DNA of 64,000 bases from contig JAPOUM010000026.1 of NCBI GenBank assembly GCA_026708645.1, forward strand, positions 513-64,512, given 5' to 3'. The notes under the pieces were generated by a model. The model was not told the origin of the DNA, did no database searches, and saw only the letters and a program-made list of their open reading frames with translations. This DNA comes from Acidimicrobiaceae bacterium (lineage in GTDB: Bacteria > Actinomycetota > Acidimicrobiia > Acidimicrobiales > Aldehydirespiratoraceae). Position numbers and translations under genes: made by a program. This document shows positions 1-58,856 of this stretch, one piece after another. Position 1 is the first letter of the stretch. Each line of letters begins with the position of its first letter.

Positions 1-55
1 ACCAGAACCGACAACACAACAAACAACGCACCAAACCAGACGCGAACCGCAGCCA

Positions 56-197
56 CACAAGACCGAGCCGCGGCCCGCAGCCGGGACCAGACCAAAGCCA
101 GCGACCCCGCGCATGGGCGGCAGCTCTTTGGCGCGGGCCATGTGGACGCCGTGGCTGGACCAGAGCCAGAGCTCGCGACCCTGCCTTGTGGTGACGG
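56..197. repeat. Left arm of an imperfect inverted repeat (partner at 4863-4946)
   Basis: 162-197 matches the reverse complement of 4863-4898 at 34/36 nt. 56-100 matches the reverse complement of 4899-4946 with small gaps. The left arm carries an extra ~61 bp (101-161). Confidence 0.7.
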
Positions 198-390
198 GTG
201 GCAGCTGGTTCGCCTCGGGCGGGTCGAGCACTCAAAGCCAAAGCCAGCGACCCCGCCTTGTGGTGACCGCCCCGGGTTCAGCGAACACGCAGCCACCAGA
301 TCTACCCCGACCATGCAGCCGCCTGGCACTGCGGTCGCCGTCGGCGGGTTCAGCGAACACGCAGCCACCACAGATCCACCCCGACACCAC
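91..390. repeat. Degenerate tandem array with a ~72-bp period (about 4 units)
   Basis: Core GCGACCC(C/T)GCC occurs at ~101, ~175 and ~247. GCCTTGTGGTGAC occurs at 183 and 255. GGGTTCAGCGAACACGCAGCCACCA occurs at 274-298 and 346-370 (exactly 72 bp apart). Confidence 0.7.
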
Positions 391-516
391 AACGGCATCA
401 CGCGCCAACAACCTCACGATAACCGACACCTAGCTGTCGGCTCGCGCGAGTTTGCGGCTCGTGTTACGGGTGCTCGTTGCGGGGCGTGGCACGGCTGGGT
501 TCGTAGGCTTTGAGTC

Positions 517-1014
517 ATGCGAGAAAATGCGAATGGTTCCATGGGCACTGCTTCGGAAGCAGCCTCAGCGGACGCAGCCCTGGCGGCAGCCGACGAGCGG
601 TCGCTGAAGGCCTGGGTCGACCGGTTCTCGGGCCATGTCGCCGATCTTCGCTACGACGAAGCGGCGGCCATGATGGACCCTTGCGTCAACAGCTTCAGCA
701 CCTGGACCGACGTGGTGGTCGGCATCGAGCAGTTCGTCAACAGCCAGTGGCGCAACGTCTGGCACACCATGACCGATTTCGTGCTGGTCACCGACAAGAT
801 GCACGCCCGGACCTCTCCGGACAGGCTGATGGCGTCGCTGATGGTGACTTGGACCTCGACGGGCTACAGCGCCGACGGCGAGCCCTTCGACCGGCCCGGA
901 CGCTGCTCGTTCGTCGTGGTCAGAGACTCGCTCAACGACGAGTGGCGGGGCGTGCAGGCCCACTTCTCGCTGATGCGCGGCGTCCCCCAGCAATCCTTCG
1001 GAACCCGCTGCTGA
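517..1014 (+). CDS. SnoaL-like / NTF2-fold (DUF4440-like) protein
   Basis: 165-aa ORF with high third-position GC. Its size and sequence pattern are typical of small NTF2-like/SnoaL polyketide-cyclase-fold proteins (family call from memory). Confidence 0.55.
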   Translation: MRENANGSMGTASEAASADAALAAADERSLKAWVDRFSGHVADLRYDEAAAMMDPCVNSFSTWTDVVVGIEQFVNSQWRNVWHTMTDFVLVTDKMHARTSPDRLMASLMVTWTSTGYSADGEPFDRPGRCSFVVVRDSLNDEWRGVQAHFSLMRGVPQQSFGTRC

Positions 1015-1092
1015 CGAGCTCAGCTGACAGGGCTCAGCTGACAGGGCTCACCGGCGGACGCCCGCCGTCAGGCGCGCCCATTTGCCGTTTCC

Positions 1093-1308
1093 GGCTGGTC
1101 GGGTCGCCGCCCGCCTCGAATTCCCGGCGGATTAGCAGCGCCGATCTGGCGCCGCTGTTGGGTTGGCCGACCGGCTCGCCGCCCGCCCCAAAGTTCCGAC
1201 GGCCGACGCCGTTCGTTCCGGGGATGTCTCACTCACGGCCGACCGGCTCGCCGCCCGCCCCAAAGTTTCGACCCTTCACTTGGTCACGACACGTTGAGCT
1301 TGGATGAA
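1093..1308. repeat. Three 72-bp-spaced units with a conserved ~31-nt core
   Basis: GGCCGACCGGCTCGCCGCCCGCCCCAAAGTT is perfect at 1165-1195 and 1237-1267. A degenerate copy (GGCTGGTCGGGTCGCCGCCCGCCTCGAATTC) starts at 1093. The remainder of each unit is unrelated. A tandem 14-mer GCTCAGCTGACAGG x2 lies at 1017-1044. Confidence 0.75.
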
Positions 1309-1354
1309 AGCGCAGTCTCCGGGTGCTCTCTCGCGCTTTCTAAGATGATTCACG

Positions 1355-3076
1355 GTGTTGACGAAGCTCACTGTCCGCAACTTCAAGCGCTTCTCTTCAG
1401 AGGAGATCGAACTCGACAGCCCGGTCGTTTTCGTCGGTCCGAACAACTCCGGTAAGACTTGCGCGATGCAGGCTCTTGCTCTGTGGGGAGTCGGGCTGAG
1501 GCGCTGGAACGAGCGGCACGCCGGCAAGACGGCCCCCGAGAAGCGACCGGGCGTGACCGTCGGTCGACGGGACTTGGTAGCAGCCCCTGTGCCCAGTGCG
1601 AGGCTGCTGTGGCGAGGGTTGTCAGTGCGCAAGCAGGCGGTCGCCGACGGAGCGCGCGGCACCTCCAATGTCCGCATGGACATCATCGTCGAGGGAGTGG
1701 GAGAGCATGGCGAATGGAAGTGCGGATTGGAGTTCGACTACGCCAATGAGGAGTCGTTCTACTGCCGGCCGCTTCGATCAGGAGAAAGCTCGACGGCTGA
1801 TCGTATGCCCATACCCGACGACGCCGCCCGTGTGACGCTGGCGTACCTGCCGCCGATGTCTGGTTTGGCCGCTACCGAGACCAGGCTCGAACACGGCGCC
1901 GTCAGCGTGCGGGTGGGCGAGGGCCGCACTGCGGAGGTGCTGCGCAATCTTTGTCATCGAGTCTGCGAGGAGAGCCCCGAGGACTGGGAGCGCCTCGTCG
2001 GGCGAGTCGAGCACCTTTTCGGAGTGGAGTTGAATCGACCGCGCCACATTGTCGAGCGCGGCGAGATCGATATGACCTACCGAGAGCGCGGCATAACCCT
2101 GGATCTGTCCAGCAGCGGACGCGGCCTGCAGCAGACGATGCTGTTGCTGGCGTATCTGTCCGTCAATCGCGGATCGGTTCTTCTGCTCGATGAACCCGAC
2201 GCCCACCTTGAGACGCTGCGCCAGCGACAGACGTATCGGACGATCACCGAGTCGGCGTCGGAGAGCGGCAGCCAAGTCATCGCAGCCAGCCACTCGGAGG
2301 TGGTGCTGAGCGAAGCCGCGAGCAAGGACGCTGTTGTGGCATTCGTGGGACGGCCCCACCGCATAGAAGACCGCTTCAGTCAAGTGCTGAAGTCTCTCAA
2401 ACAGATCAGTTTCGATCATTATCTTCAGGCGGAGCAGACCGGCTGGGTCCTGTATCTGGAGGGTTCTACCGATCTGGCTGTTCTGCAGGCGTTCGCCCGG
2501 CGCCTCGACCATGCGCCCGCGCTGTCAGCGTTGGACAAGCCGTTCGTTCACTACGTGGGCAACCAGCCCAACGAGGCCCGGTCGCATTTTTACGGTCTGC
2601 GTGAGGCGTTGCCTTCGCTTCGGGGCGTGGCACTGTTCGACCGGATGGAGACGGGCGCATCTGACACCGGCGACTTGGAGCATCTGACGTGGCGGCGCCG
2701 CGAGATCGAGAACTACTTGTGTACGGAGGCGACGCTCATGGCGTTCGCTGAGCGGCCCGAGGCCGGTCATGGACCGCTCGACCTGCTCGCACGCCGTCAG
2801 CACATGACCGAAGCGATCGAGCGGATCGCTTCGGCTATGCGGACCCTGGGACGGGGGTCGCCTTGGAGCGCGGACGCCAAGGTCAGCGACGACTTCCTCA
2901 AGCCGCTGTTCGGCGAGTATTTCAGCCGCGTCGGTCTGCCCAGCCTCTTAGCGAAGAAGAGCTTCCATGAGTTGGCTGATTTGGTGCCCGACGACGAGAT
3001 GGATCCTGAGATCACCGAGAAGCTCGATGCCATAGCAGCAGTAGCTTCGCCGGAAAGCCCGGTTGCGGAGTTCTGA
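1355..3076 (+). CDS. OLD-family-like ABC/AAA ATPase fused to a Toprim/DUF4435-like C-terminal domain (PARIS/Gabija-GajA-like architecture)
   Basis: The N-terminus LTKLTVRNFKRF...FVGPNNSGKT is a Walker A. LLLDEPDAHLE is a Walker B, followed by ASHSE. The C-terminal half has YLEGSTDLAVL, ALFDRME and REIENYL, resembling Toprim/DUF4435 signatures. Confidence 0.6.
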   Translation: MLTKLTVRNFKRFSSEEIELDSPVVFVGPNNSGKTCAMQALALWGVGLRRWNERHAGKTAPEKRPGVTVGRRDLVAAPVPSARLLWRGLSVRKQAVADGARGTSNVRMDIIVEGVGEHGEWKCGLEFDYANEESFYCRPLRSGESSTADRMPIPDDAARVTLAYLPPMSGLAATETRLEHGAVSVRVGEGRTAEVLRNLCHRVCEESPEDWERLVGRVEHLFGVELNRPRHIVERGEIDMTYRERGITLDLSSSGRGLQQTMLLLAYLSVNRGSVLLLDEPDAHLETLRQRQTYRTITESASESGSQVIAASHSEVVLSEAASKDAVVAFVGRPHRIEDRFSQVLKSLKQISFDHYLQAEQTGWVLYLEGSTDLAVLQAFARRLDHAPALSALDKPFVHYVGNQPNEARSHFYGLREALPSLRGVALFDRMETGASDTGDLEHLTWRRREIENYLCTEATLMAFAERPEAGHGPLDLLARRQHMTEAIERIASAMRTLGRGSPWSADAKVSDDFLKPLFGEYFSRVGLPSLLAKKSFHELADLVPDDEMDPEITEKLDAIAAVASPESPVAEF

Positions 3077-3190
3077 GCCGCCACTCAGCGATCCCGCAGT
3101 CTGCGCCTGACGCTGCACAACGAGATAACGGTTCTGTCATCCCGGCCGGGATCTGAAAGTTATAACATAGATAGTCTGAACTGATGATCT

Positions 3191-3571
3191 GTGAAGTTGG
3201 CTCGCTTCTCCGACCGGCTACATGCCCCGAGCGGGAGACGCGAATGGGCCTGCTCTTTGAGTCGCTGGTGGTCGCGACCTGTGTGTTTATGCAGCCGCCT
3301 GCAAGGCCGACGTCATCACTGTCGCACTAGCTATGGCGACGAGATCGACGCGATCGTCGAACGACGCGACGGGGCTTGGATGGCCGTCGAGGTCGAGTTG
3401 AGTCCGTCGAGAGCGGACGAAGCCGCTCAATCTTTGCGTAAAGCGTGCGCCACGATCGACGCCGGCGAGCGCGGCGAGACGGTGAAGAAGGTCGTGGTGA
3501 CCGCCACCGGATACGGCTACGAACGAGACGACGGCATCTCGGTGGTGCCCATCACCGCTCTAGGCCCCTGA
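3191..3571 (+). pseudogene. C-terminal remnant of an AAA_14/DUF4143 ATP-binding protein (N-terminus missing, frameshifted)
   Basis: The tail YGDEIDAIVERRDGAWMAVEVELS... matches the DUF4143 end. The preceding GLLFESLVV segment (from 3244) is in a different frame. No ATPase domain lies upstream. Confidence 0.55.
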
Positions 3572-3664
3572 CTTCCGCGGCCCGGCGCCCAGGAAGAGCG
3601 CGCCGACCCGTCAATGTTCAGAGTCGAGTGGGAATCCGCCCCTGACTTCCGCGGCCCGGCGCCC
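3565..3664. repeat. 26-bp direct repeat pair (3565-3590 and 3639-3664), 74 bp apart
   Basis: CCCCTGACTTCCGCGGCCCGGCGCCC occurs twice. It is ~70% identical to the CCCCAAAGTTCCGACGGCCGACGCC core at 1185. Confidence 0.7.
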
Positions 3665-3727
3665 TTACAGAGAGTGCCAGGCGATCGAACGACTTGGGCA
3701 GAGGAGGCTGGGTATTAAATCGCTTGC

Positions 3728-4696
3728 TCAGTCTCGTAGCTGCTGCTGGGAGCGCTGGTGGGCGAGTGTGGCGATCGCCACGTCTTGGAGAGCTACGCCC
3801 TGGGATTCGAACAGCACTATGCCGCTGCCGGGGCCTGGGCCGGCCTGTGCAGCCGGGAGCGAAACCGGGATCGTGACCGTGCCTGCGATCACTTCGGTGA
3901 GGTCGACCAGACTGGCCCAGTCGAAGCTTCCCTCCGCCGCGGCGTGTATCAGGTCTCCGGCTTCGCTGCGGGCGCCTTCTTCGCTGTCGCTCACCACGAG
4001 CGCCGCGCGGGCCACGGTCGTGGTGTCGACCTCTTGGCGGGTGGCTTTGGTCGAGCCCACAGCGCACACTAGAGCGGACGCCTCCAGACGCTCGCCGTCG
4101 AACAACGGGGTGCGGCTCGAGGTCACGGTGACCACCACTCGGGCGCCTTCCACCGCTTCGTCGGCGCCGGCCGTCGCCCTTGCCGGTATGCCCCGTTGCT
4201 GGGCCCAGGCGGCGACCTGCTCGGCCTTGTGCAGGTCGCGCCCCCAGACTCGCAGGTCGGTCAGCGGCATCTCCTGGGCGAGTGCCTGCAGGTGAGGCCG
4301 GCTCTGTCTGCCCGTGCCGAGCACTGCTGCGGTGGTGGCGTCCGACGGCGCCAGATGCCTCACGGCCAGCGCGCTGGCGGCTGCGGTGCGGATGGCGGTG
4401 AGGCCTGCCCCGTCGAAGGTGGCGACCAGCCCGGCCTCGGGTTTGAAGAGACCCACAAGAAAGGAGAAACCGCCGGGGTGGGTGATGTACAGCTTGCCGC
4501 CGGCCACGCCGTGCCGGGGCCATGAGGCGGCCATGGCGCTGCCCATCAGCCCTCCGGCCTCGGCCCTCACCCGCAGCGTGGTGGCCGCCTCGGCGGCGGC
4601 GAGGTCGCGCCAAGCCTGCTCCAGCCAGTCGGTGACAGTCGCCAGATCGCACAGTTCCGCGACCTGGTTCTCGGTGAAGTGAGGCACAGCGCTCAT
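3728..4696 (-). CDS. Ornithine cyclodeaminase / mu-crystallin family protein
   Basis: 322-aa ORF with a Rossmann-like LGTGRQ segment and the overall family pattern. High GC3. Confidence 0.7.
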   Translation of the reverse strand: MSAVPHFTENQVAELCDLATVTDWLEQAWRDLAAAEAATTLRVRAEAGGLMGSAMAASWPRHGVAGGKLYITHPGGFSFLVGLFKPEAGLVATFDGAGLTAIRTAAASALAVRHLAPSDATTAAVLGTGRQSRPHLQALAQEMPLTDLRVWGRDLHKAEQVAAWAQQRGIPARATAGADEAVEGARVVVTVTSSRTPLFDGERLEASALVCAVGSTKATRQEVDTTTVARAALVVSDSEEGARSEAGDLIHAAAEGSFDWASLVDLTEVIAGTVTIPVSLPAAQAGPGPGSGIVLFESQGVALQDVAIATLAHQRSQQQLRD

Positions 4697-4703
4697 GTCG
4701 GCT

Positions 4704-4812
4704 CCTCGGACGGCCAGTAGCCAAGCACTCTAAGTTTCGCGTGCAAACTGGATGTGTCTTCGCGCATAGCGACTACCTCGGACGGCATGTAGCCAGGCAC
4801 TCTGAGTTCTCG
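4704..4812. repeat. 37-bp direct repeat pair, 72 bp apart
   Basis: CCTCGGACGGCCAGTAGCCAAGCACTCTAAGTTTCGC starts at 4704 and CCTCGGACGGCATGTAGCCAGGCACTCTGAGTTCTCG at 4776. Both share the ...CTAAGTTTCG end with the 1165/1237 core. Confidence 0.7.
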
Positions 4813-4862
4813 TCGCTTTTCGCGTGGCGGATCGAAAGTAGGAGCAGCGTGTCCGCTCTACA

Positions 4863-4946
4863 GGCCGTCACCACAGGGCAGGGTCACGAGCTCTGGCTCT
4901 GGTCTGGCCGCGCGGCTGCGGGTCGCGGCTTGCGGCTTGGTCTTGT
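4863..4946. repeat. Right arm of the inverted repeat (partner at 56-197)
   Basis: See the left arm. The reverse complement reads ACAAGACCAAGCCGCAAGCCGCGACCCGCAGCC...AGAGCCAGAGCTCGTGACCCTGCCCTGTGGTGACGG. Confidence 0.7.
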
Positions 4947-4949
4947 CTA

Positions 4950-6780
4950 GCTGTAGTGGTCACAGAGGTTGGGAGCAGCGTGTAGGGGGTGGGCCTCCTG
5001 TGTGAGTGTGGGGTTGCAACAGCAAACGACATGAACACAGTAGGCTTGATGCCGCATGCGAATGCAAGCCTGATGTCTGGCAGCGGGTGATGATGTTGCA
5101 GCTGGCTGGCGAACTCTAACGTGCGTTAGAGTTATGCGAGCCGACAAAATAAACTGGTATTGAATTGAGCCGCACAAGATAGCCGCACAAAATAATAGTA
5201 GATATTACTGACCACGGGTTCTCTCCTTTTTATTGACGTGATACTGTCCCGAGGCCCCATCGTCCTTGCGATCGCCCCTTCTTCGGCGACTCATGTGTCA
5301 CGTCGCTACCGATGCCGCGGAACTGTTTACGTGCGGGGCGAACTCTAAGCTTCGGCGAACTCTAGTGGTGGTTGCGAGTGGGGGCGGGGTAGATGCTGGG
5401 CACTGAGTGCCAGAGGTGGCGCGGCCCACACCACTGGGCAGCGCTTTACGCGGGTGCGCGCCTCCACATCCGCCCATCGACAGCTCGTGGGCGTAACGCC
5501 ACGACACTCGCGGCGCGCCTTTGGGAAGTAATCACTACTATTACTAACCGCCCTTCAAGGCAGGGTCGATCACAACCTGCTCGAAGCGGCCATCTGATCC
5601 CGGCGGCTGGAGGGCCTCGTCGGCTGCCTCTATCCTGAACTGCTGACAGACTTGATCGGCTCGGCTTGGCGCGACCGCAGCTTGACCGCTCTTCCCATTC
5701 AGGGGCCTGACATCTTGCGAAGCCCAGATCCGATGGCGTGCGCGCAGGCTCTGCACCGAGTAAGTAATAATTACTATTACTATATCATCAACGCTGAGGT
5801 ATTACCTTTGCCGGGCAGCCGCGGTCGAGCAGATCGCGAAGCGGAACGACAGCCGGGCGGCGACGCTGAGGCCTTGCTTCTGCCGGTCAGCCATGAAAGT
5901 AATAATTTTTATCACTTTCTACGGACAGCGCCGAATAATGGCTCTTCTCATTTGGGGTGGAGCAGGGCTGACGGCCATCCTCGCCGGGGATGTGAGATCC
6001 CCGGCGAATCTGAGCTGTGCGGCAAGCGAGATCTGGAGGATGGCGAACTCCACCGGTCGGATGCCGGCAGTGGCACTGGTCATCATGACTTATCTCTTGC
6101 AGCCACTCGGTGAAGTCCGCCGTGCACTTCAGGGATCAAGCCGCGAGACAGAGGCACAACTGCTCACTTGCATCCAACGCTGAAGTTCGACGTGAACTTC
6201 AGATCACCGCGGCCTTGCCCGATGTCGAGTTCGTTCAACTGCTCTCCAGTTATGAAGCTTTGTGCGCGACCACTGAATAGCCGCAGTCGCACTCGTGCGG
6301 TATCGTCACGCGAGCTGCCAGCAATAAACTAGATGCATGTTGCCCGCACGGGCAGGTTAGAACAATAATGAATACTATTTACCGCGGATCTACTGTTCCC
6401 TACTGACGGGCTGCTGCACCAATCCAGCATATAAGAATGATTATTACATTCTAGTTTCGCTTGCCTCAGCGGGCAAATCGGGCAAGGAGAATTCCGAGTA
6501 CAAGCCGCAATTAGTAGTAGTAATAACAAATTAATAGTAGTAATAACAGTTGTGTTCTACCAGTGCTGCCAGCCCTGTCGCCCTCGCAACGCAGCCAACG
6601 ATGCAAGGGCGCGCCACAGGCAGGCTGCCGTGCGGAGGGACTAGCCGATACAGTCATCATTGTTATTACGTTCGACAGAGCGACCTGCCCGCCCCGCCTG
6701 CTCAGCCCATCCTCGACACCTTGACCACGCACTACGGCGACCGGATCACCAGCCACAACCAATGAGAACCACCATCAGAC
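4950..6780. other. ORF-poor, motif-dense 1.8-kb tract with AT-rich AGTAAT/ATTACT islands
   Basis: No ORF longer than 153 aa and none with a recognisable family. AT islands lie at 5188-5209, 5525-5546, 5759-5787, 5895-5915, 6322-6452, 6508-6548 and 6660-6668 within GC-rich DNA. Confidence 0.6.
5111..5132. promoter_or_regulatory. Perfect 10-bp inverted repeat AACTCTAACG-TG-CGTTAGAGTT (operator-like)
   Basis: Read directly from the sequence. Related half-sites GCGAACTCTAAG (5337-5348) and GCGAACTCTAG (5354-5364) lie nearby. Confidence 0.4.
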
Positions 6781-6809
6781 ACACAAAAAATCGCACATGC
6801 CTGCCATTC

Positions 6810-7040
6810 CAGAGGCTCCCTGTGAGCCCGGCTTCTGGGCGACCTCGTCGGCTGGGCCGGCATCGACAGAGCCGCACACTCCCGACACCCCGATCATTTT
6901 CGAGGCTCTCTGTGAGCCCGGCTTCTGAGCGACACTCTCGACCGCGGCGAGCGCAACGAGATGTGGTGCTCCCGACGCTCCTAGTGAGCCCGGATTCTGA
7001 GCGACTGGCGCACTCCTCGTGAGCCCGGATTCTGTGCCCA
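6810..7040 (+). repeat. Four copies of the purB start segment GTGAGCCCGG(C/A)TTCTG
   Basis: Copies start at about 6820, 6911, 6984 and 7019 (the real purB start). The three upstream copies are in one frame (ORF 6660-7022), whose TGA overlaps the purB GTG as GTGA. Confidence 0.75.
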
Positions 7041-8449
7041 ACGTGTTGGCGAGTCGTTATGCCGGCACGGCCATGCGTGCCTTGTGGGCGCCGGAGCATC
7101 GTGTCGTGCTCGAGCGCCGCCTGTGGCTGGCGGTCCTGGAGGCGCAACGCCTGCTGGGTCTCGATGTCGAGCAGCCTGTGGCAGACGCCTACCGAGATGT
7201 GCTCGAGCAGGTCGACCTCGAGTCGATAGCCGCCCGTGAAGCAGTGACGCGCCATGACGTGAAAGCTCGCATCGACGAGTTCTGCGCGTTGGCGGGCCAT
7301 GAGGCGATCCATCTGGGCATGACCTCACGCGACGTCACCGAGAACACCGAACAGCTCCTGATCGTCGAATCTCTGAAAGTGGTCCGAGACGGTCTGGTGG
7401 CGACGCTGGCTCGTCTGGCCGACCTGGCCGCAACCCATGCCGAGACCCTGATGGTGGCGCGCACCCACAATGTCGCCGCGCAGGCCACCACCCTGGGGAA
7501 GCGCTTCGCCGACGCGGCAGCCGAAACCCTGGTCGGCTACCAGCGGATCACGGAGCTCTTGCAGCGCTATCGGTTGCGCGGCATCAAGGGCGCGGTCGGA
7601 ACACAGCAGGACCAGCTCGATCTGCTCGGGTCCGTGGAAGCCGTCGATTCCTTGGAGCGGATCGTGGCCGAGCGTCTCGGTTGGGGAGGCGTGCTCGAGG
7701 CTTCGGGCCAGGTTTATCCGCGTTCGTTGGATCTGGATGTGGTGACGGCGCTGCTGCAGGCGGTCTCCGGTGTCGGGTCGCTGGCAACGACTCTGCGGCT
7801 CATGGCCGGGCACGGGCTCGTGTCGGAAGGCTTCCGTGACGGCCAGGTCGGCTCGTCGGTCATGCCCCACAAAGTCAACGCGCGCTCCTGCGAACGCATC
7901 GCTGCGCTGCGGGCAGTGCTGAACGGGCATGTCGCAGTCGCGGCCTCGTTGGCGGGGACCCAATGGAACGAGGGCGACGTGAGCTGTTCAGCGGCTCGCC
8001 GGGTGATGCTGCCCGATGCGTTCTGCGCGGCTGACGGCATTTTGCACACCGCGCTGGGCGTGCTAGCCGAACTGCAGATCAACGAGGCCGCTCTGACATC
8101 AGAGTTCGAGCGTTATGAGCCTCTGCTGATCACGACGCGCCTGCTCGGGGCTTTGACCCGGGCAGGGATGGGCCGCGAAGCCGCCCATGCAGCGCTCTCC
8201 GGACCCGCGCGGCGGGCTGCGCAGCACGCCTGCGGCGAAGAGTCCGCCGGCTTGGAGTCGCTGATCGACGAACTTGCCGAGGATCCGCTGGTGCCGCTGG
8301 ATCGATCCGATCTGGCCGGCTTGACGGCGGACCGGCACCGCCTGGCGGGAACCGCGGCCCAGCAGGTGGAGCGTGTCGTCGCCGCGGCACATGAAGTGAC
8401 GCGCCATCATCCGCAGGCCGCGCAACAGAAAGCCGAGGTCCGCCTGTGA
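7019..8449 (+). CDS. purB: Adenylosuccinate lyase
   Basis: 476 aa. Contains the fumarate-lyase superfamily signature region GSSVMPHKVNA. The N-terminal NVLASRY and the length are typical of PurB. Confidence 0.9.
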   Translation: MSPDSVPNVLASRYAGTAMRALWAPEHRVVLERRLWLAVLEAQRLLGLDVEQPVADAYRDVLEQVDLESIAAREAVTRHDVKARIDEFCALAGHEAIHLGMTSRDVTENTEQLLIVESLKVVRDGLVATLARLADLAATHAETLMVARTHNVAAQATTLGKRFADAAAETLVGYQRITELLQRYRLRGIKGAVGTQQDQLDLLGSVEAVDSLERIVAERLGWGGVLEASGQVYPRSLDLDVVTALLQAVSGVGSLATTLRLMAGHGLVSEGFRDGQVGSSVMPHKVNARSCERIAALRAVLNGHVAVAASLAGTQWNEGDVSCSAARRVMLPDAFCAADGILHTALGVLAELQINEAALTSEFERYEPLLITTRLLGALTRAGMGREAAHAALSGPARRAAQHACGEESAGLESLIDELAEDPLVPLDRSDLAGLTADRHRLAGTAAQQVERVVAAAHEVTRHHPQAAQQKAEVRL

Positions 8450-8484
8450 CTCAGGCGAACCTCCAGCCTTCCAAAATCACGGCC

Positions 8485-8575
8485 GCAGCCTGGCCGCAGA
8501 TCAGCAGCCGCAGCACAGCCGCAGATCGGCTGCAAATCAAGCTCGTAGCCCGGCTGCAGATCAGCAGCCGCGGCT
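8485..8575. repeat. Intergenic GCCGCAGATC(A/G)GC repeats between convergent genes
   Basis: GCCGCAGATCAGCAGCCGC, GCCGCAGATCGGCTGC and GCTGCAGATCAGCAGCCGC lie within 90 bp, and short hairpins are possible. Confidence 0.55.
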
Positions 8576-8586
8576 GACGAATCCGA

Positions 8587-9012
8587 TCAGGCGCCGCCTC
8601 GCGTGATGCCGGCGCGCTTCAACACCGAAGCAGGGACATTCACCTCACGCCAGGCGGCGTAAGTGATTCCCTTGCGTCCGCTGTAGGACACCGCGACATC
8701 CACGAAGCGGTCCTCGAGTGCGCTGATGTCGACGTCCTCAGTCGGAACGGACAAGGCGCGCTCAAGGTCGATGCGCTCCTGAATGAGTTGAACCCGCCGT
8801 ATCGGCGCAGCTGACTCCAGAGCGTCGCTGATGGCTTCCATGCGATTGCGGATTGATTCTGCGGTGCGCTGGCGGCCCCGCTTGGGCTTGTGCGCCTCAA
8901 GGGCTTCGAGGTATTCACCCACAGCTCGGTTCTCTTCGCGAGCTTTGGCGTTCGCCGCCCGGTGCTCATCTGACATGTATCGTACCAATGCCTTGTCCTT
9001 TCGCTGGTACAT
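8587..9012 (-). CDS. Conserved hypothetical protein (helical; C-terminal GRKGITYAAWREVNVPASVLKRAGI)
   Basis: ORF 8587-9183 trimmed to the ATG at 9012 (an alternative ATG is at 8976). An AT-rich putative promoter lies just upstream. I could not name a family. Confidence 0.5.
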   Translation of the reverse strand: MYQRKDKALVRYMSDEHRAANAKAREENRAVGEYLEALEAHKPKRGRQRTAESIRNRMEAISDALESAAPIRRVQLIQERIDLERALSVPTEDVDISALEDRFVDVAVSYSGRKGITYAAWREVNVPASVLKRAGITRGGA

Positions 9013-9451: not shown

Positions 9452-11305
9452 TCAGCTCTTGAGGCGGGACACGTCGCGCACAGCGCCCTTGTCGGCTGAC
9501 GTGGCCATGGCGGCGTAAGCCTGCAAAGCGGCCGACACTTCACGTCGGCGCGCCCGCGGCTTCCAGCCGTCGCTGCGGGTTTCGTGTTCGTCTCGGCGGC
9601 GTTGCAGCTCGGCTTCGTCCACCCGCAGATTGACTGTGCGTTCGGGAATGTCGATGTCGATGATGTCGCCGTCGCGGATCAGCGCTATCGCCCCGCCCTC
9701 GGCCGCTTCAGGGGATGCGTGACCGATAGAGAGCCCCGAGGTCCCTCCCGAGAAGCGTCCGTCGGTGAACAGCGCGCACTGCTTGCCCAGCCCTCGTGAC
9801 TTGATGTACGAAGTGGGATAGAGCATCTCTTGCATGCCCGGGCCGCCGCGCGGGCCTTCATAGCGCACGATCACCACATCGCCGGGTTGTATCCCGTTGT
9901 CGGTGTCGAGAATCCCGTCGCACGCCTCTTCTTGGCTCTCGAAAACTCTCGCAGGACCCGAGAACCGCATGATCGAAGAGTCGACGCCGGCGGTCTTGAC
10001 GATGCAGCCGTCGGCGGCGATGTTGCCGTAGAGCACTGCGAGCCCGCCGTCGGCGTTGTACGGGTCGGCTGCTGAGCGGATGCAGCCGTTGCTGCGGTCG
10101 GTGTCGAGCGTCGGCCATCTGCTCGACTGGCTGAACGGCTGCTGCGTGGCAATGCCCGCGGGCCCCGCCTTGAAGAACTCGACCACCTCGGCGGAAGGGT
10201 CGCGCCTCACGTCCCAGACCTGCAAGGCGTCGGCCAGCGTGTCCGCATGCACGGTGCTCACCGAAGTGTCGAGCAGTCCGCCGCGGTCGAGCTCTCCGAG
10301 GATGCCCATGATCCCCCCGGCGCGGTGCACGTCCTCGACATGGAACTCCTCGGTGGAGGGCGCCACTTTGCAGATGTTGGGGGTGCTGCGGCTGAGCCGG
10401 TCGATGTCGGCCATCGTGAAGTCCACCTGCCCCTCCCGGGCGGCGGCCAGGATGTGCAGCACCGTGTTGGTGGAGCCGCCCATGGCGATGTCGAGGCGCA
10501 TGGCGTTCTCGAAAGCGGCTTTGGTGGCGATGCGGCGCGGCAGCACCGACTCGTCGTCCTTCTCGTAGTGGCGCCGAGCCAGGTCGACGACCCGCCGCCC
10601 GGCCTCGCGGAACAGTTCCCGCCGGTCCGAGTGCGTGGCCAGGGTGGTGCCGTTGCCGGGCAGCGACAGCCCCAGCGCCTCGGTGAGGCAGTTCATGGAG
10701 TTGGCGGTGAACATCCCCGAGCACGATCCGCAGGTGGGGCACGCGGCGCGTTCCATTTCCAGCAAGTCCTCGTCGCTCACCGTCGGGTCGCCTGCGGAGA
10801 TCATCGGGTTGATCAAGTCGAGCTTCACGCTGACCCCGGCCAGCTTGGTCTTGCCGGCTTCCATCGGCCCGCCCGACACGAACACGGTCGGCACGTTGAG
10901 CCGCATCGCCGCCATCAGCATGCCCGGAGTGATCTTGTCGCAGTTGGAGATGCAGACCAGCGCGTCGGCGCAGTGGGCGTTGACCATGTACTCGACCGAG
11001 TCGGCTATCAAGTCGCGGCTCGGCAGGCTGTAGAGCATCCCGCTGTGGCCCATGGCGATGCCGTCGTCGACTGCGATGGTGTTGAATTCTTTGGCCACGC
11101 CCCCCGCGTCGGTTATCTCGTCGGCCACCAGCTTGCCGAGATCGCGCAGATGCACGTGACCGGGCACGAACTGGGTGAACGAGTTGGCCACGGCCACGAT
11201 CGGCTTGTCGAAGTCGTCGTCGGTCATGCCGGTGGCGCGCCACAGGGCGCGCGCCCCGGCCATGTTGCGGCCCTGGGTGGTGGTGTGGGATCGAAGCTGC
11301 GGCAT
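9452..11305 (-). CDS. ilvD: Dihydroxy-acid dehydratase
   Basis: 617 aa. The N-terminus [22 protein letters not shown] and the conserved cysteines (CDKITPG, CPTCGSC) are typical of IlvD. Confidence 0.92.
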
Positions 11306-11404
11306 GGCAGGAACCCTACCGAGCCACGGCCGGCGGAGGCCAATCCGCCGAAGTTCAGAAATTTGAGGTTGTGATCTGATGTGTAATAAAGTTATATTAG
11401 ATGT

Positions 11405-11842
11405 ATGAGCACAAACTACGTTCCATCAGATGATTTCCTGAAGTATTTAGCGAACACGGCTCGGGAGTTGGCTGAGATGGGCAGACGCGCGGAGCGTGCT
11501 ATGGAAAAGCGCCACGCCGCGGTAGTCGCCTCTCGGGAAGACTCGAGGCGGGCCAGAGAGGCTCTGCTCGAGGCTGCGTCGGGGCTCCATGTTATGGCAT
11601 CGAGCCTCAACGACTTCAACAAGACGGCTTATCAGGCCACTGAGCAGGCCACGGCGTCGCTGGTGGAATTCTTCGAGGAATACAAGAAGGACATGAGACG
11701 CCTGGCAGAGTTGAGCGACATGATGGCGGCCTATCTGTCGGCGCCGCCTGACGACGGCCTTGAATCCGGAGACGAGCCGTCCGACCCGCCGCTAGGAGAC
11801 GAGCCGTCCGACCTGTTGGCAGAAGACGACCCGACCGAGTAG
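11405..11842 (+). CDS. Hypothetical helical protein with an acidic GDEPSD-repeat tail
   Basis: 145-aa ORF preceded by an AT-rich stretch (11360-11404). The 5' end has lower GC. No family recognised. Confidence 0.45.
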
Positions 11843-16571: not shown

Positions 16572-16623
16572 GGCTTGCGCTGGGCGATGTTGCCGCTGGC
16601 TTGCGCTGGGCGATGTTGCCGCG
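16572..16623. repeat. Tandem 26-bp repeat x2 (plus a partial third)
   Basis: GGCTTGCGCTGGGCGATGTTGCCGC(T/G) lies at 16572-16597 and 16598-16623, followed by GCTTGCGTT. It is ~90 bp upstream of the GPP34-P450 gene. Confidence 0.8.
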
Positions 16624-16708: not shown

Positions 16709-18772
16709 ATGACGATTATTGAGCGTGAAGTTGCAGATGGGAGCGTTGATCCTGGCAGACCTCTGACGCTGGTTGATGAGCTGGTGTTGACTCTTCTCAA
16801 TGAGGAATCCGGCTATTTCCGTCAGGTGCCGATCTGGAACCTCAACTGCGCCGTTATCGGCGGGGCTCTGGCTGAGTTGTCGTTGCGGGGCCGCATCGAC
16901 ACTGATCTCGACTCGTTGATCTTCGTGGACGGCGCACCTACCGGCGACCCGGCGCTTGATCGGCTGCTTGAAAAGATCGGAGCTTCGACCGGGCAGCACA
17001 ACGCTCAATATTGGATCGAGAAGCTTGTGCCGGAGGCCGAGCCCATTATCGATATGACCCTTGAGCGTCTGACCGAGATGAACATTCTGCGGCATCACGA
17101 AGGCGAATTTTGGTCGCTGTCGAAGGTCGTCTGGGGCGCAGCAGACGGATCCGCTGACGGTGCCGACGATCAGGCCAGTAACGAGTTCGTCAAGACTCGT
17201 ATCAGTAGAGCTATCTTCACCGATGAGATCCCGTCGCCTGTGGACGTGATCATCGTTTGTATCACCGATGTCTGTGATGTGCTGCGTTTCATCTTTGAGC
17301 TTGACGAGGCAGCTGAGCAGAGGGTGGTCGAAATCTGCAAGATGGATCTGATCGGGCGTGCCATTGCCGACGCGGTTCGCGAGAATTTCGTCACTGCGCA
17401 AGTTATTCCCACCGCGATCACCAAGCAGATTCCCTCTGTGAAGCTGATGGACATGATTCGCAGTCCAAACGCTCGCAACGGGAATATGCCGGCGTTCTTC
17501 GCTGAATGTTACAAAAAATACGGCCCTGTCTTCAGGCTCAAGCAGCCGTTTCAGCAGCCTTTTACCTGCGTAGCCGGTCCCGAAGTCAATGCGTGGGTTC
17601 ACCGCCACGGTCGATTGTATCTGTCATCAAGGCATGCTCTTGATGATTTCCTAAAAGCTGTCGGTGCAAGAAATTTTGTGAACACGCTTGACGGTGTTGA
17701 TCACTTCAAGTGTCGCAAGTCCTTTCAACAGTCTTTTTCGCGCTCCAGATTAGTGGAGCGATCTGATGAAATGCTCAATTATGGTCTCGACAGTATCTCT
17801 AGTCTGGAAATCGGTAGTGAGATTCCGTTAGTAGAACTTGGATATCGGGTATCCAACTCGCAGATGTCGCCGTTGTTGCTTGGTGTTGAAACTCAGGACG
17901 TCTTTGATGATGTATCTAAATTTATATTGCGAATTCTAATGACGGATTTTGCTGGCTACCTTCCCAAGCTCATGAATCATACTCCTGGAATGCGGCGCCG
18001 CAAGAAACTCTTCAATGAGCTTGTGGATCAGGTCTTTGCTAGTCATACAGCTGCTCAACGAGCCGGTTGCCCCAGAGATTACATTGATGATCTGGTGAGC
18101 TTCAATGCCAGCGACCCTCAGCTGATGCCCCAAGCCAACATGCGCTTTGCAATCATCAACGCCCTGATAAATTCCATGTACACTGGGCAGCAGATGTCGA
18201 CCTTAATGTACTTACTGCTGTCAAACCCGGAAGTTTATCAGCAAGTCACTGCCGAGGCTGATGCAGTATTCGGTGAAGGCGGCAAAGTTGATTTTGAAGT
18301 TTTCACTGGCCCGGCAACTGATGTAACTCAACGGGTAGTCACTGAAAATTTGCGCTTATATCCTACAATATTCGGATCATTCCGCCATGCGATAAACAAC
18401 TGCTTGATCGGTGGATATCAAATGTCGGTGGGAGAAAGACTTTGGATTCTGTCAGCAGTTACTCACTATCTAGACGATCAATTTCCAGAGCCAATGAAGT
18501 TTGACATTGACAGGTACAAGTCTCCGCGTAATGAACATCGCGGCACCGGATATGCCCCGTTTGGACTTGATACTCATACCTGTCTTGGCCAACGTTTAGT
18601 TTCTCTGCAATTGGCAATCAACATTCTGATGTTGTCACACTACTTTGAAATGGAACTGGTAAACAAGGATTCCGATATCAAGATGACTGTTTTGCCTTTG
18701 CCGGGCTTGGCAGCGAGAAGGAAAATCAAAGCCCGCTTCGTCGCGCGCCGCCACGAAGTAACCAAGCCCTGA
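16709..18772 (+). CDS. GPP34/GOLPH3-family domain fused to a cytochrome P450 domain
   Basis: The N-terminal ~210 aa (LTLVDELVLTLLNEESGYF...GGALAELSLRGRID) look like bacterial GPP34 proteins. The C-terminal ~470 aa have ExxR (ENLRLYP) and a Cys-ligand loop PFGLDTHTCLGQRL. GC is far lower than the genome average. Confidence 0.7.
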   Translation: MTIIEREVADGSVDPGRPLTLVDELVLTLLNEESGYFRQVPIWNLNCAVIGGALAELSLRGRIDTDLDSLIFVDGAPTGDPALDRLLEKIGASTGQHNAQYWIEKLVPEAEPIIDMTLERLTEMNILRHHEGEFWSLSKVVWGAADGSADGADDQASNEFVKTRISRAIFTDEIPSPVDVIIVCITDVCDVLRFIFELDEAAEQRVVEICKMDLIGRAIADAVRENFVTAQVIPTAITKQIPSVKLMDMIRSPNARNGNMPAFFAECYKKYGPVFRLKQPFQQPFTCVAGPEVNAWVHRHGRLYLSSRHALDDFLKAVGARNFVNTLDGVDHFKCRKSFQQSFSRSRLVERSDEMLNYGLDSISSLEIGSEIPLVELGYRVSNSQMSPLLLGVETQDVFDDVSKFILRILMTDFAGYLPKLMNHTPGMRRRKKLFNELVDQVFASHTAAQRAGCPRDYIDDLVSFNASDPQLMPQANMRFAIINALINSMYTGQQMSTLMYLLLSNPEVYQQVTAEADAVFGEGGKVDFEVFTGPATDVTQRVVTENLRLYPTIFGSFRHAINNCLIGGYQMSVGERLWILSAVTHYLDDQFPEPMKFDIDRYKSPRNEHRGTGYAPFGLDTHTCLGQRLVSLQLAINILMLSHYFEMELVNKDSDIKMTVLPLPGLAARRKIKARFVARRHEVTKP

Positions 18773-19299: not shown

Positions 19300-19620
19300 T
19301 CAGTCCTGCTCGAGCACAGCCCAGAGGCCGTGCTCGTGGAGCCGGTAAGCGTCGAATTCGGCCTTCTCGAGCGGCCCCGACGCCACCACGGCCCTGCCCT
19401 CGGTGTGAACCTGCATCATCAGCCGGTGCGCCTTGGCTGCCGAATAGCCGAACAATTTGCGGAACACGTAGACCACATACGACATCAAGTTGACCGGGTC
19501 ATCGAGAACGATCACCTTCCAGGGCAGATCAGGCCGCCGGTCGGTCTCGTCCACCGGATCCTTCACAGGAGCGGTGACCGGCGACGCCGAAGCGAGCACC
19601 GCAAAACAGAGTTCGGTCAT
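19300..19620 (-). CDS. clpS: ATP-dependent Clp protease adaptor ClpS
   Basis: [27 protein letters not shown]...[12 protein letters not shown] is the ClpS core. Its ATG overlaps the ctaA stop as ATGA. Confidence 0.9.
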
Positions 19621-20702
19621 GTCGTGCCAATCAGTGGTCTGAAGTCAGAGGGCCTGCTGTCCGGGCGACCGCTGCGCGGTGACGCCCCAGCGTAGGCCGC
19701 CTTGACTATCTGAATCCAAGTGATCGAAGCCAGAGTAACATGAATACCCACTAAAAGCACAGGCACACCCAGAAAATACTGCGCATAACCGACAGCCGCC
19801 TGCACGATCAGCAGTTCGGCGATTCTGCGCATGCGGACTTGTTCGGACGACCCTGACGCCCGCATCCGCCACCAGGCCCAGATCACCAGCACCAGCAGAG
19901 CGATCGCGATGACGCTGTGGACTCGCACCACTTCTCGCACCAGCAGCGGCAGCCGCTCGGCTCGGCTGTCTCCCGCGTGCGGTCCCGCTCCTGTGACCAG
20001 AGTGCCGCTGACCAGCAGCACCGCAGCGACGGTCATCACAGCCCACACCAGCAGCCGAGTGACGCCGTCGGTGCCGCCTGTGCCGTCGGTGCCGCCTGTG
20101 CCGTCGGTGTCGCCTGTGCCAGCGGTGCCGCCTGTATCCCCCGCGTCGTCTTGGTCGTCTTCGCCGCCTCGTCGCTCTGAGCGGCTCGCGTCGTCACCGG
20201 CGAGTTCGACAGCCCGGCCAGGGTCGCCGGGTTCGAAATCGCGGGCTTTCACGTCGAGCAGGGACGCATTCCAAAGCAGCACCATCGACAACAAGAAGTG
20301 CCCCATCGTGAAACGGGGATCGAGCTCCGACAGCACCAGCAGAGCCCCCAGCCCGACTTGGGCCAGCACACCGGCCACCAGACCCAGCGACAACCATGCC
20401 AGATCGGCCCGACGCGGCCTGCGCCGCCAAGCGCCGAGCACGGCGCCGAGCACGGCGACGGCCACGACCCCGGTGAACAGCCGGTTCACGAACTCGACCA
20501 GAGCGTGGAACTCCAAATCCGCCAAGAAGCGGTCCTGTGAGCAGGCGGGCCAGTCCTCGCACCCCAGCCCCGAACCGGTGAGCCGCACGGACACGCCGGT
20601 CACCACGATCGCCGCCAGCGCCCACAAGGCGAACCGAGTGAGCCGTGCATAGGCGGTCGGAGCCACGAGCCGATGGTAGGGCCCGGTCGGCTCGCCGAGC
20701 AC
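19617..20702 (-). CDS. ctaA: Haem A synthase (COX15/CtaA family)
   Basis: [17 protein letters not shown] and multiple TM helices with conserved His. The start is trimmed to the GTG at 20702, because the longest ORF (to 20921) has an Arg/Ser-rich non-protein-like N-terminus and would abut ctaB. Confidence 0.8.
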
Positions 20703-20923
20703 CTGAGCGCTCCACGGACGGCGACTGCCGCTGGCGAGTAGTCGCCTCTGCGATGCTCTCTTGGACGAGCGCCTGTCGGCGTGCAGCCGCGACCCGACGA
20801 TCGCAACACGATCTGACGATCTGGACGATCTGCTGGTGTGGCCCGTCGGCGCGGCGCCGTTCGATCGTCGCCCCCCGGCAGTCAGATGACCAGATGACCG
20901 GTGTGATCTTCTAGCCTGCAAGC

Positions 20924-58740: not shown

Positions 58741-58800
58741 ATGCCTGCCCCTTTATGCCTGCCTCTTTTTGAGTTCGTCGGTGAGCGCGCGTCGGCTCGT

Positions 58801-58856
58801 GCTGGTCAGTCCGCGCTGGTCAGTCCGTGCTGGTCAGTCCGTGCTGGTCAGTCAGC
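58801..58856. repeat. 14-bp tandem repeat x4 (GCTGGTCAGTCCG[C/T])
   Basis: Copies at 58801, 58815, 58829 and 58843. The last runs into the ppi stop codon. The array lies between ppi and hbd. Confidence 0.85.

Follow-up and report, generated by a model that had tools for sequence, protein, structure and literature searches.

The OCD-purB spacer and its AT-rich islands

The window, that is, the whole 64-kb stretch of DNA that was analyzed, belongs to a sponge-associated Acidimicrobiia MAG and has a GC content of 65.5%. In it, OCD and purB lie head-to-head across a lineage-specific, gene-free spacer of 2.3 kb (4697-7018) with a GC content of 57.8%. A preliminary description of this DNA had placed the gene-free tract at 4950-6780; the lack of genes was confirmed, but the extent had been understated. 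All of the sequence features that it reported are present, each of them 1 nt higher than given there. The junction adjoins an inserted AriA/GajA-like defence-type ATPase gene. A neighbouring gene, orf126 (3191-3571), is a truncated gene remnant.

The tract was considered a real sequence because this DNA is present in independent short-read, unitig and long-read assemblies. A 26-mer from its flank gave 0 matches in the JGI metagenomes, and the species is therefore absent from them. No match to the tract DNA was found by blastn among phages and plasmids. The features of the spacer are as follows (R, repeat; S, spacer segment).

4697-7018: whole gene-free divergent spacer, from the OCD start at 4696 (minus strand) to the purB start at 7019 or 7034 (plus strand); 57.8% GC
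4704-4808: repeat-spacer-repeat unit upstream of OCD, R 4704-4736 and 4776-4808, 72 nt apart
5112-5133: perfect, G+C-containing hairpin, AACTCTAACG-TG-CGTTAGAGTT
5187-5209: island 1, left half, TAATAGTAG-AT-ATTACT, with ATTACT at 5204-5209
5210-5525: strain-specific segment of ~316 nt inside the palindrome of island 1, edges uncertain to within a few nt (322-327 nt in alignments)
5526-5546: island 1b, AAGTAATCACTACTATTACTA, with AGTAAT-N7-ATTACT at 5527-5545
5759-5788: island 2, AGTAAGTAATAATTACTATTACTATATCAT, holding the palindrome AGTAAT-A-ATTACT (AGTAATAATTACT, 5763-5775); fold z -2.5
5789-5894: repeat-spacer-repeat unit exactly between islands 2 and 3, R ~35 nt and S ~37 nt, 72 nt apart
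5802-5894, minus strand: 30-codon ORF, GC3 0.87, codon-usage score 0.12
5893-5918: island 3, AAAGTAATAA-TTT-TTATCACTTT, imperfect palindrome with 10-bp arms, AGTAAT at 5898-5903; fold z -3.2
5938-6183, plus strand: orphan ORF of 81 codons (96 from 5893), the sole tract ORF picked by gene callers, with no real homologue
5981-6007: strongest hairpin of the tract, 10-11-bp GC-rich stem; DNA fold z -6.1
6180-6202: hairpin with a 9-bp stem, the stop codon of ORF 5938-6183 in its 5' arm
6361-6381: island 4, AACAATAATGAATACTATTTA, non-palindromic, overlapping the promoter-like match TTGCCC-18-AATAAT (plus strand)
6429-6453: island 5, palindrome AGAATG-ATTATTA-CATTCT, overlapping the promoter-like match TTGCCC-17-TAGAAT (minus strand); fold z -3.2
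6509-6548: island 6, two tandem copies of the 20-nt unit AATTARTAGTAGTAATAACA, each with five consecutive stop codons; TAGTAGTAATAACA at 6515-6528 and 6535-6548
6651-6671: island 7, with TGTTATTAC at 6661-6669, in inverted orientation relative to its partner GTAATAACA of island 6
6805-7037: four copies of the ancestral purA-stop/purB-start junction sequence GTGAGCCCGGATTCTG, with spacings of 90, 72 and 35; the last copy overlaps the purB start

The gene order at this locus was compared with that of relatives, in which clpC-purA-purB forms a tight operon. In the 19 relatives examined, a gene of 428-433 aa (452 aa in one locus), identified as purA where tested (L010), ends ~20-130 nt before purB, and the downstream order purB-h198-ilvD-p450 is conserved. 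OCD closes the likewise tight operon ACAD-AMP ligase-DUF6282-IsoDH-OCD in the relatives, where a homologue of window 517-1014 comes next. The tract itself is restricted to one species-level lineage.

The AT-rich islands sharing AGTAAT/ATTACT are real, as had been described, and their structure, palindromic nature and enrichment far above chance were established directly. Of the 11 stretches in the window in which 12 or more of 14 nt are A/T, six fall inside the tract, which represents 3.6% of the window (binomial P ~1e-6), and so do nine of its 11 AGTAAT/ATTACT hexamers. The arrangement AGTAAT-N0-10-ATTACT occurs twice, compared with 0.00 in shuffles. TARTARTAR occurs 11 times, always in the tract (0.03 expected), and was absent from 1.42 Mb from 80 relatives' loci. 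The islands align to the consensus aGTAATnAnTACTATTA and are short palindromes, one arm being composed of (TAG/TAA)n and the other of (CTA/TTA)n; therefore, one reading frame is a run of stop codons, such as TAG TAA TAG TAG TGA on the minus strand of island 1b. DNA-hairpin folding exceeded that of shuffled sequences in five of the seven islands (z -2.5 to -4), and island 1 forms a perfect 10-bp stem in the version carried by L089.

Several candidate roles for the motif were discarded. A shared operator for other genes was rejected, since the motif is found nowhere else in the 64-kb window or in the extra 10 kb available for strain L092. The 91 single matches of TAATAGTAGTAATAACA in viral contigs were attributed to chance because all of them were in contigs of 20-52% GC. 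A leader peptide (plus-strand Val/Ile/Thr or Leu runs) was also rejected: the reading frame is not the same in all islands, the Leu frame has stops directly before it, and there is no start codon and no amino-acid operon downstream. With regard to a replication origin, the tract contains no TTNTCCACA DnaA box (up to one mismatch), the total in the window equals that expected by chance, and no skew switch was observed.

Coding, RNA and promoter signals in the tract

No coding, RNA-family or pseudogene signal was detected in the tract. No codon periodicity was observed, the six frames gave no Pfam match at E≤0.1, and all of the ORFs scored below real genes on codon statistics; the earlier statement that there is no recognisable gene holds for the whole of 4697-7018. 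The strain differences in ORF 5938-6183 were nonsynonymous in five out of five cases (P=0.002 if 30% nonsynonymous is expected), and this ORF is not under purifying selection. Searches with the concatenated tract ORFs retrieved no homologue and were unreliable, as the cluster representative P0003, which is 94% identical, was missed too. An exhaustive HMMER search was used in their place for the 96-codon ORF and, among 1.84 billion representative proteins, returned its own cluster and spurious repeat-protein matches only. The three non-self matches were discarded as ankyrin-repeat or other repeat proteins, matched via many weak repeated stretches. The other tract ORFs were never called as genes in any assembly.

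Two further observations had been made on the ORFs. The 30-codon ORF does have the host-like GC3 noted for it, but its codon score is ordinary, being matched by 15% of the stop-free wrong-frame windows of real genes. That four islands lie directly upstream of minus-strand ORFs is true in a mechanical sense and would be expected anyway: the islands bound any open frame because they are almost the sole stop-rich places in this DNA.

An origin of the tract from decayed pseudogenes, or the presence in it of real micro-ORFs whose codon usage is atypical, was regarded as very improbable. The 81/96-codon ORF picked by gene callers, the GC3 of the 30-codon ORF and the genuinely truncated orf126 next to the tract are in line with it; the empty six-frame Pfam search, the non-genic codon scores, the exclusively nonsynonymous changes and the lack of any true homologue among the representative proteins argue against it. 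Moreover, tblastn with the relatives' purA, clpC, IsoDH, DUF6282, AMP ligase and ACAD genes, which flank OCD and purB there, revealed no remnant of them in the tract, and tblastx of the tract against 80 relatives' loci yielded compositional noise only. Relatives with intact ordinary genes at this position, which the preliminary description had named as one observation that would overturn it, were not found; the relatives lack the locus altogether.

The tract is rich in hairpins: of the eight perfect ones in the window whose stems reach 9 bp or more, three are located here (P=0.002). The 9-bp-stem hairpin reported previously exists, its true position being 6180-6202. Copies of the motif GGCGAACTCTA are present at 5108, 5337 and 5354, and the pattern GGCGAACTCTA-N0-30-GGCGAACTCTA gave 39 matches in JGI metagenomes, none of them with further similarity to the tract. 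The proposal that the tract encodes one large structured RNA found no support in Rfam, which gave no match at E≤1 in 3500-8500 and only tRNAs in the whole window at the gathering threshold. Local folding z-scores of about -3 at 5000-5150 and 5825-6124 would agree with such an RNA, but they are significant only locally, at simple palindromes, whose scores are the same for the two strands. Given also that the tract is not conserved beyond one species and tolerates an indel of 316 nt, a large structured RNA seems extremely unlikely.

A further proposal was that the islands are promoters or operators for micro-ORFs or sRNAs. The part concerning the ORFs found no support, in view of their non-genic codon statistics and of the changes and missing homologues of ORF 5938-6183. 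In a broader form, the islands would be AT-rich promoter/operator modules, partly bidirectional, giving rise to short non-coding transcripts that end at nearby hairpins or serving as new promoters for OCD and purB. Both genes are internal or distal in the relatives' operons and would need promoters after the rearrangement. Many TANNNT-type hexamers are present in the islands on both strands, two convergent promoter-like matches to the consensus lie at islands 4 and 5, and the hairpins at 5112-5133, 5981-6007 and 6180-6202 are located 60-90 nt from islands 1 and 3 or at the end of an ORF. However, the sigma-70-type -35/-10 matches show no clear enrichment (two, compared with 0.8±1.0 in shuffles, for an E. 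coli-type consensus; actinobacterial promoters are looser), and the gap to the closest island is ~490 nt for the OCD start and ~360 nt for that of purB. The remainder of the 64 kb and a further 10 kb of this genome lack the motif, the hairpins have no U-tails, and nothing downstream is a conserved ORF or RNA. One island also accommodates either 6 or 17 triplets, or an insert of 316 nt. A promoter function was considered unlikely.

Strain haplotypes, the 316-nt segment and the 72-nt units

The collections contain three haplotypes of this locus, ~99% identical to each other: that of the window, that of L092, and that shared by L093 and L089-91. They are collinear, with no inversion among them, and the differences are found mainly at the islands, in which the indels are concentrated. 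In the other strains, islands 1 and 1b form one continuous palindromic microsatellite, AGTAGTAGTA-GATAT-TACTACTACT..., with 6 ACT/ATT triplets in L089/L093 and 17 in L092, and the 20-nt unit of 6509-6548, present twice in the window, is found once in L092; these are copy-number differences of the VNTR type. Island 3 differs between strains by a 1-nt indel at 5905. The ~316-nt segment is carried by the window haplotype only, as a clean presence/absence difference (insertion or deletion) located a few nt from the dyad. Overall, four of the five indel events among the three haplotypes are in or at islands, and at least three of four independent indel events are in islands, which account for 11% of the columns (P=0.005). 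This pattern fits a generic instability caused by hairpins and slippage. The SNP density was 3.3% in the islands and 1.5% in the rest of the tract, a difference that was not significant (P=0.12).

Among the four explanations offered in the preliminary description, recombination sites came closest to these observations, as most of the indel events, including that of ~316 nt, took place in or at islands; there was no sign of a dedicated recombinase system. The islands as dedicated recombination sites, with the tract as an array of inserted non-coding cassettes, were judged an unlikely explanation, whether as MITE-like terminal inverted repeats, as targets of a hairpin- or TTAC-specific transposase (IS200/IS605-like) or as invertase/shufflon-type sites. 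As in MITEs or IS elements, the 316-nt segment is flanked by terminal inverted repeats with 22-nt arms (5193-5214 and 5522-5543, 82% complementary), its presence or absence is clean, and the junction is compatible with a precise insertion, without target duplication, 3' of TTAC. Islands 6 and 7, read together, make a palindrome split by ~111 nt, and several island pairs are inverted and 300-1000 nt apart. By contrast, no transposase, integrase or invertase was present among the neighbours tested, searches of the 64-kb window, of 1.42 Mb of relatives and of phages and plasmids gave no second copy of the segment, and no target-site duplication was evident at its junction. The candidate left- and right-end hairpins are unlike each other, the half-site spacing varies from N1 to N7, and no haplotype is inverted.

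Additionally, repeat-spacer-repeat units were observed in window 1-8600, with a constant length of 72 nt in 7 measured cases and of 60 or 90 nt in some others. The repeats measure ~33-41 nt and the spacer segments ~31-39 nt; the latter show no relationship among themselves or with the flanks. The repeat is a different one at each locus and is present there in only 2-4 copies, with 75-97% identity. Direct repeats around unrelated spacers of similar, constant length recall a CRISPR array, but no single repeat is shared along three or more units, and no cas gene was present among the window proteins tested. No match was found when the spacer segments were searched in phages as protospacers. A dispersed REP-like family was rejected, since nhmmer profiles of the purB-junction repeat and of the 150-197 repeat found no additional copies.

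It is conceivable, but improbable, that this spacer, like the other oversized stretches between genes in 1-8600, is being built piecemeal by a DNA-insertion activity, the 72-nt units, of which at least eight would be independent, being ectopic Cas1-Cas2-type ("neo-CRISPR") footprints in a plasticity hotspot and the AT palindromes a second kind of site prone to insertion. Ectopic integration of spacers by Cas1-Cas2 ("neo-CRISPR") has been described (Nivala et al., 2018, as cited in PMC7054753; bioRxiv 10.1101/148544). The likeness would concern the 72-nt units only, in the ~36-nt local duplication around an unrelated ~36-nt insert and in the constant unit length; the window has neither a cas gene among the proteins tested nor a canonical array, some units are of 60 or 90 nt, and the AT islands would be left unexplained. 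The 72-nt units could represent a natural test of off-target array seeding by the CRISPR adaptation machinery.

Proposed junction DNA and its comparison with known systems

The best explanation, to which we give about an even chance, is that the tract is fast-evolving, lineage-specific, non-coding junction DNA in which hairpin-prone AT palindromes act as hotspots of slippage and breakage. Two conserved blocks, one ending in IsoDH-OCD and the other clpC-purA-purB, would have been broken and joined head-to-head beside the inserted ATPase. The 2.3 kb of orphan DNA between OCD and purB would since have evolved by local duplication, inverted duplication and slippage. The islands would be unstable palindromic simple-sequence repeats that gain or lose whole triplets or 20-nt units and that are preferred breakpoints for the insertion or deletion of segments, probably through replication slippage and hairpin-provoked breakage and repair. 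The shared hexamers may then reflect common descent by duplication rather than protein recognition, and the -10-like hexamers and in-frame stops could be by-products with respect to transcription and translation.

Some observations weigh against junction DNA of this kind. The islands share specific sequences (AGTAAT, TACTATTA), which could equally indicate a binding protein. The persistence of AT-rich DNA in a GC-rich genome, beside repeat copies diverged by 3-25%, hints at ongoing homogenisation or selection. Furthermore, islands 2, 4, 5 and 7 are identical in all three haplotypes, and the SNP excess in the islands is non-significant, in a comparison of three haplotypes with ~1% divergence.

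The islands might also be nucleation sites for an AT-preferring nucleoid protein (Lsr2-like) in the silencing of recently assembled DNA. The sharp AT-rich islands within DNA of lower GC content (57.8% against 65.5%) and the location beside a horizontally inserted defence-type gene are compatible with it. Nevertheless, nothing sets such silencing apart from simple AT-richness, and it would explain neither the triplet and palindrome structure nor the concentration of indels. We consider it quite unlikely.

If the tract is indeed junction DNA, its meaning would be mostly one of caution, as a motif array that is striking and highly non-random, and that lies in a "gene desert" of a compact, GC-rich genome, may be a product of the way such DNA evolves (slippage, inverted duplication and hairpin breakage) and not a regulatory device. 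It would also document the break and rejoining of two conserved operons in an uncultivated sponge symbiont, together with the type of DNA that fills the junction.

To our knowledge, palindromes of TAG/TAA triplets within a genome of 65% GC have not been described as a class of repeats. The islands resemble invertons and shufflons in that inverted repeats of ~20 nt flank a segment of ~300 nt and several inverted site copies lie within 1.5 kb; unlike in those systems, no invertase is nearby, no haplotype is inverted, and the segment is absent from the other strains, not flipped. Yeast mitochondrial intergenic DNA is AT-rich and carries mobile GC clusters. These are likewise short palindromes of the "wrong" composition in non-coding spacers, tied to indels and recombination, but their composition is the inverse, they belong to another domain of life, and there is no sign that the islands move.

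Bacterial contingency repeats and VNTRs, such as the mycobacterial MIRU-VNTR, are similar in being intergenic and in differing by whole units between near-identical strains (here triplets, 20-nt and 72-nt units). In contrast to them, the islands have no demonstrable gene or promoter switch, no credible gene lying within ~360 nt of any island where a contingency repeat would sit within an ORF or between promoter elements, and they are AT-rich palindromes in a genome of high GC content. MIRU loci have sequence in common and, unlike the islands, are not built of stop triplets.

Finally, PATRRs (palindromic AT-rich repeats) lie at human translocation breakpoints and are AT-rich, palindromic and length-polymorphic, of hundreds of bp, and eukaryotic; they rearrange at or near the palindrome centre. 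In the tract, one clean event, that of the 316-nt segment, lies a few nt from the dyad, and islands 6 and 7 may be a second split palindrome. The islands are bacterial, with triplet-built arms of 6-30 nt and a putative breakage mechanism. They share with PATRRs the AT-rich, near-perfect palindrome with hairpin potential, the length polymorphism and the location at a rearrangement junction.

Gene content of the divergent spacer

The tract lies between two divergent genes, which form its borders:

3728-4696, minus strand, ornithine cyclodeaminase-family gene (OCD), left border
7019/7034-8449, plus strand, purB, right border

The true start of purB is probably the GTG at 7034 (MPNVLASRY...) rather than 7019. 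The preliminary description had placed an ORF-poor tract at 4950-6780; the gene-free DNA proved larger, occupying the full spacer (4697-7018), and all of the sequence features listed there exist, one base further right. Six of the 11 AT islands of the window fall in the tract (P about 1e-6), as do nine of its 11 AGTAAT/ATTACT hexamers.

No three-base periodicity was found across the tract, no tract ORF reached the codon-usage score of real genes, and no Pfam domain was matched in six frames. Islands had been described immediately upstream of small ORFs; this placement was confirmed and is expected, since hardly any stop-rich sequence exists outside the islands and ORFs are inevitably bounded by them. 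The one ORF chosen by gene callers (81 codons, 5938-6183, plus strand) carried five substitutions between haplotypes, all five nonsynonymous, and among 1.84 billion representative proteins matched only its own cluster and spuriously matched repeat proteins. Two protein searches by word index proved unreliable with short ORFs, as they missed the representative of this cluster (P0003, 81 aa, 94% identical), which was retrieved by an exhaustive HMMER search; short-ORF negatives from the word-index search are not trustworthy. That the tract consists of pseudogenes or micro-ORFs is poorly supported and very improbable. The large structured RNA proposed earlier, with no Rfam family matched in the tract, is also poorly supported and can hardly be credited.

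Source of the sequence and origin of the junction

The window has a GC content of 65.5%. The OCD sequence was identical on metagenome scaffolds and in two MAGs that NCBI lists as Acidimicrobiaceae bacterium (GCA_026709905.1 and GCA_026710015.1); all these loci match the window at 99.9% identity or more. A purB scan of species-representative genomes identified the nearest relatives as sponge-type Acidimicrobiia ('Candidatus Aldehydirespirator', Acidimicrobiales), at 71-79% amino-acid identity. The tract was found in short-read scaffolds, Logan contigs and a 2.48-Mb contig (L092, another strain haplotype), and therefore is not an assembly artefact. Phage and plasmid collections contained no tract-like sequence. 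Elsewhere in the window, the gene at 16709-18772 (plus strand) encodes a 687-aa protein in which a GPP34 (Golgi phosphoprotein 3) domain is fused to a cytochrome P450; the DNA around it (14-20 kb) is lower in GC (57-60%) and comes after a tRNA-Glu/Asp/Phe cluster; GPP34 is reported in the title of PMC11706023 as a sponge-symbiosis marker in Actinobacteriota.

In the 19 relatives examined, purB is preceded, at a distance of about 20-130 nt, by the end of a gene of 428-433 aa (452 aa in one locus). Where tested (relative L010), this gene was the adenylosuccinate synthetase gene purA, preceded by a ClpC-type ATPase gene of ~830 aa. The downstream order purB-h198-ilvD-P450 is the same in the relatives and the window. 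In the relatives, OCD closes a tight operon with the order acyl-CoA dehydrogenase / AMP ligase / DUF6282 / isocitrate-type dehydrogenase / OCD, and the next gene, convergent and 151 aa long, is homologous to window 517-1014. Judged by this operon order, the breaks in the two operons of this lineage fall precisely at the OCD and purB 5' ends, which now face each other across the tract. Remnants of the lost neighbour genes were not detectable in it.

On the other side of OCD, a 2.7-kb block (1015-3727) is inserted between OCD and the gene at 517-1014. It encodes an AAA_15/AAA_21 ATPase of 573 aa, whose best matches in PADLOC are AriA, NsnB, GajA and Old, and holds a truncated ORF, orf126 (3191-3571), with a match to the C-terminal end of PADLOC family PDC-S01; strain L093 has ~700 nt in place of 160 nt of the window (3085-3243). 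A 705-aa HNH protein is encoded just upstream of the window; some gene callers extend its ORF through 1-513 (635-824 aa), and another stops at about position 1 (705 aa). This stretch is probably non-coding, because it is C/A-rich, holds two repeat-spacer-repeat arrays and has a low-complexity translation. Additionally, a 48-nt inverted repeat (150-197 and 4865-4912, also 66-101 and 4893-4930; 90% complementary) flanks a 4.7-kb block comprising OCD, orf126, the AAA ATPase gene and a gene for 165 aa; this block could undergo, or have undergone, inversion by recombination between the arms.

Repeat-spacer-repeat units at gene boundaries

Repeat-spacer-repeat units are present in the first 8.6 kb of the window, tract included, all at gene boundaries.

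Loci of repeat-spacer-repeat units
89-420
1093-1272
3564-3678
4704-4808
5789-5894
6086-6202
6805-7037
8474-8574

The repeats are about 33-41 nt long; seven times the spacing was exactly 72 nt (elsewhere 71, 74, 90 and 60 nt), and the DNA between the copies (about 31-39 nt) was unrelated to the next spacer or the flank. The repeated sequence differed at every locus, and four repeat families terminate in CGAC. The ancestral purA-stop/purB-start junction occurs four times upstream of purB; GTGAGCCCGGATTCTG, just before purB (6978-7040), is ancestral and holds the purA stop codon in relative L009 (about 9900-10000). Since the junction is also in tandem duplicate in L010 (about 9900-10000, 38-nt units), it is duplication-prone across the clade. 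Copy number varied between strains in steps of entire units (-72 nt at 1165-1236; +146 nt at 92-256 in L093). Close relatives have similar units at gene boundaries with 66-74-nt spacing, and distant relatives show a broad spread.

In geometry the units correspond to one CRISPR repeat with its spacer, and to off-target Cas1-Cas2 integration, reported by Nivala et al. 2018 (as cited in PMC7054753 and bioRxiv 10.1101/148544). With no cas gene or canonical CRISPR array in the window, the reading of the 72-nt units as CRISPR repeats and spacers or as footprints of such integration is quite improbable. Other short repeats were a 9-nt-period tandem repeat (18-nt unit) at 20064-20135, within a COX15/CtaA-like ORF (19617-20921), four repeats of 14-nt period at 58777-58857, and, at 16572-16622, a 25-nt sequence repeated exactly with a spacing of 26 nt.

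Palindromic islands and strain variation

The islands are restricted to the tract core (5187-6671); the tract ends (4697 to about 5100; about 6690 to 7033) are C/A-rich on the sense strand of the gene, a composition also present upstream of other genes here. Nine aligned islands gave the consensus aGTAATnAnTACTATTA, with (TAG/TAA)n on one arm and (CTA/TTA)n on the other, so that one frame of one strand holds 3-5 consecutive stop codons (19 in L092). TARTARTAR occurred 11 times against 0.03 expected, and never in 1.42 Mb from 80 relatives. DNA hairpin folding was significantly better than for shuffled sequence in five of the seven islands tested, and of the window's eight perfect hairpins whose stems reach 9 bp or more, three lie in the tract. 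Some islands might be promoters of short transcripts that end at nearby hairpins, which we consider rather unlikely; their attracting an AT-binding silencer is quite improbable. Two AT islands outside the tract, at 3156-3173 (upstream of orf126) and 11382-11406 (within the ilvD upstream region), have AAAGTTATA..TAGAT in common, look unlike the tract islands and may represent promoters or operators of an ordinary kind.

The collections held only three haplotypes (window type, L092 and L093/L089-91), about 99% identical to each other and differing chiefly at the islands. At island 1, the window has two parts (1a and 1b) separated by ~316 nt, and the other strains a single continuous palindromic microsatellite: AGTAGTAGTA-GATAT-TACTACTACT and then ATT/ACT triplets (6 altogether) in L089/L093, as opposed to 17 triplets in L092. 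The 20-nt unit at 6509-6548 is present twice in the window and once in L092, and island 3 differs by a 1-nt indel. Across the three haplotypes, four of the five indel events fell in or at islands, which make up 11% of aligned columns (P=0.005 for at least three of four events in islands). SNP density was 3.3% in islands and 1.5% elsewhere, a difference that was not significant (P=0.12; three haplotypes, ~1% divergence).

The 316-nt segment bears on whether the islands are sites or ends of a dedicated recombination system: inverted sequences of 22 nt flank it, and an insertion 3' of TTAC is one way to read it, but it lacks a target duplication, a second copy and a nearby recombinase, and such a system is unlikely. 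With about even confidence, we read the tract as young, lineage-restricted junction DNA that would change through local duplication, inverted duplication and slippage, its AT palindromes behaving as unstable, hairpin-prone simple-sequence repeats and favoured indel breakpoints. Beside the structural, comparative and negative results observed for the tract, the mechanism, slippage together with hairpin-provoked breakage and repair, is one that we infer through analogy to palindromic AT-rich repeats and bacterial VNTRs.
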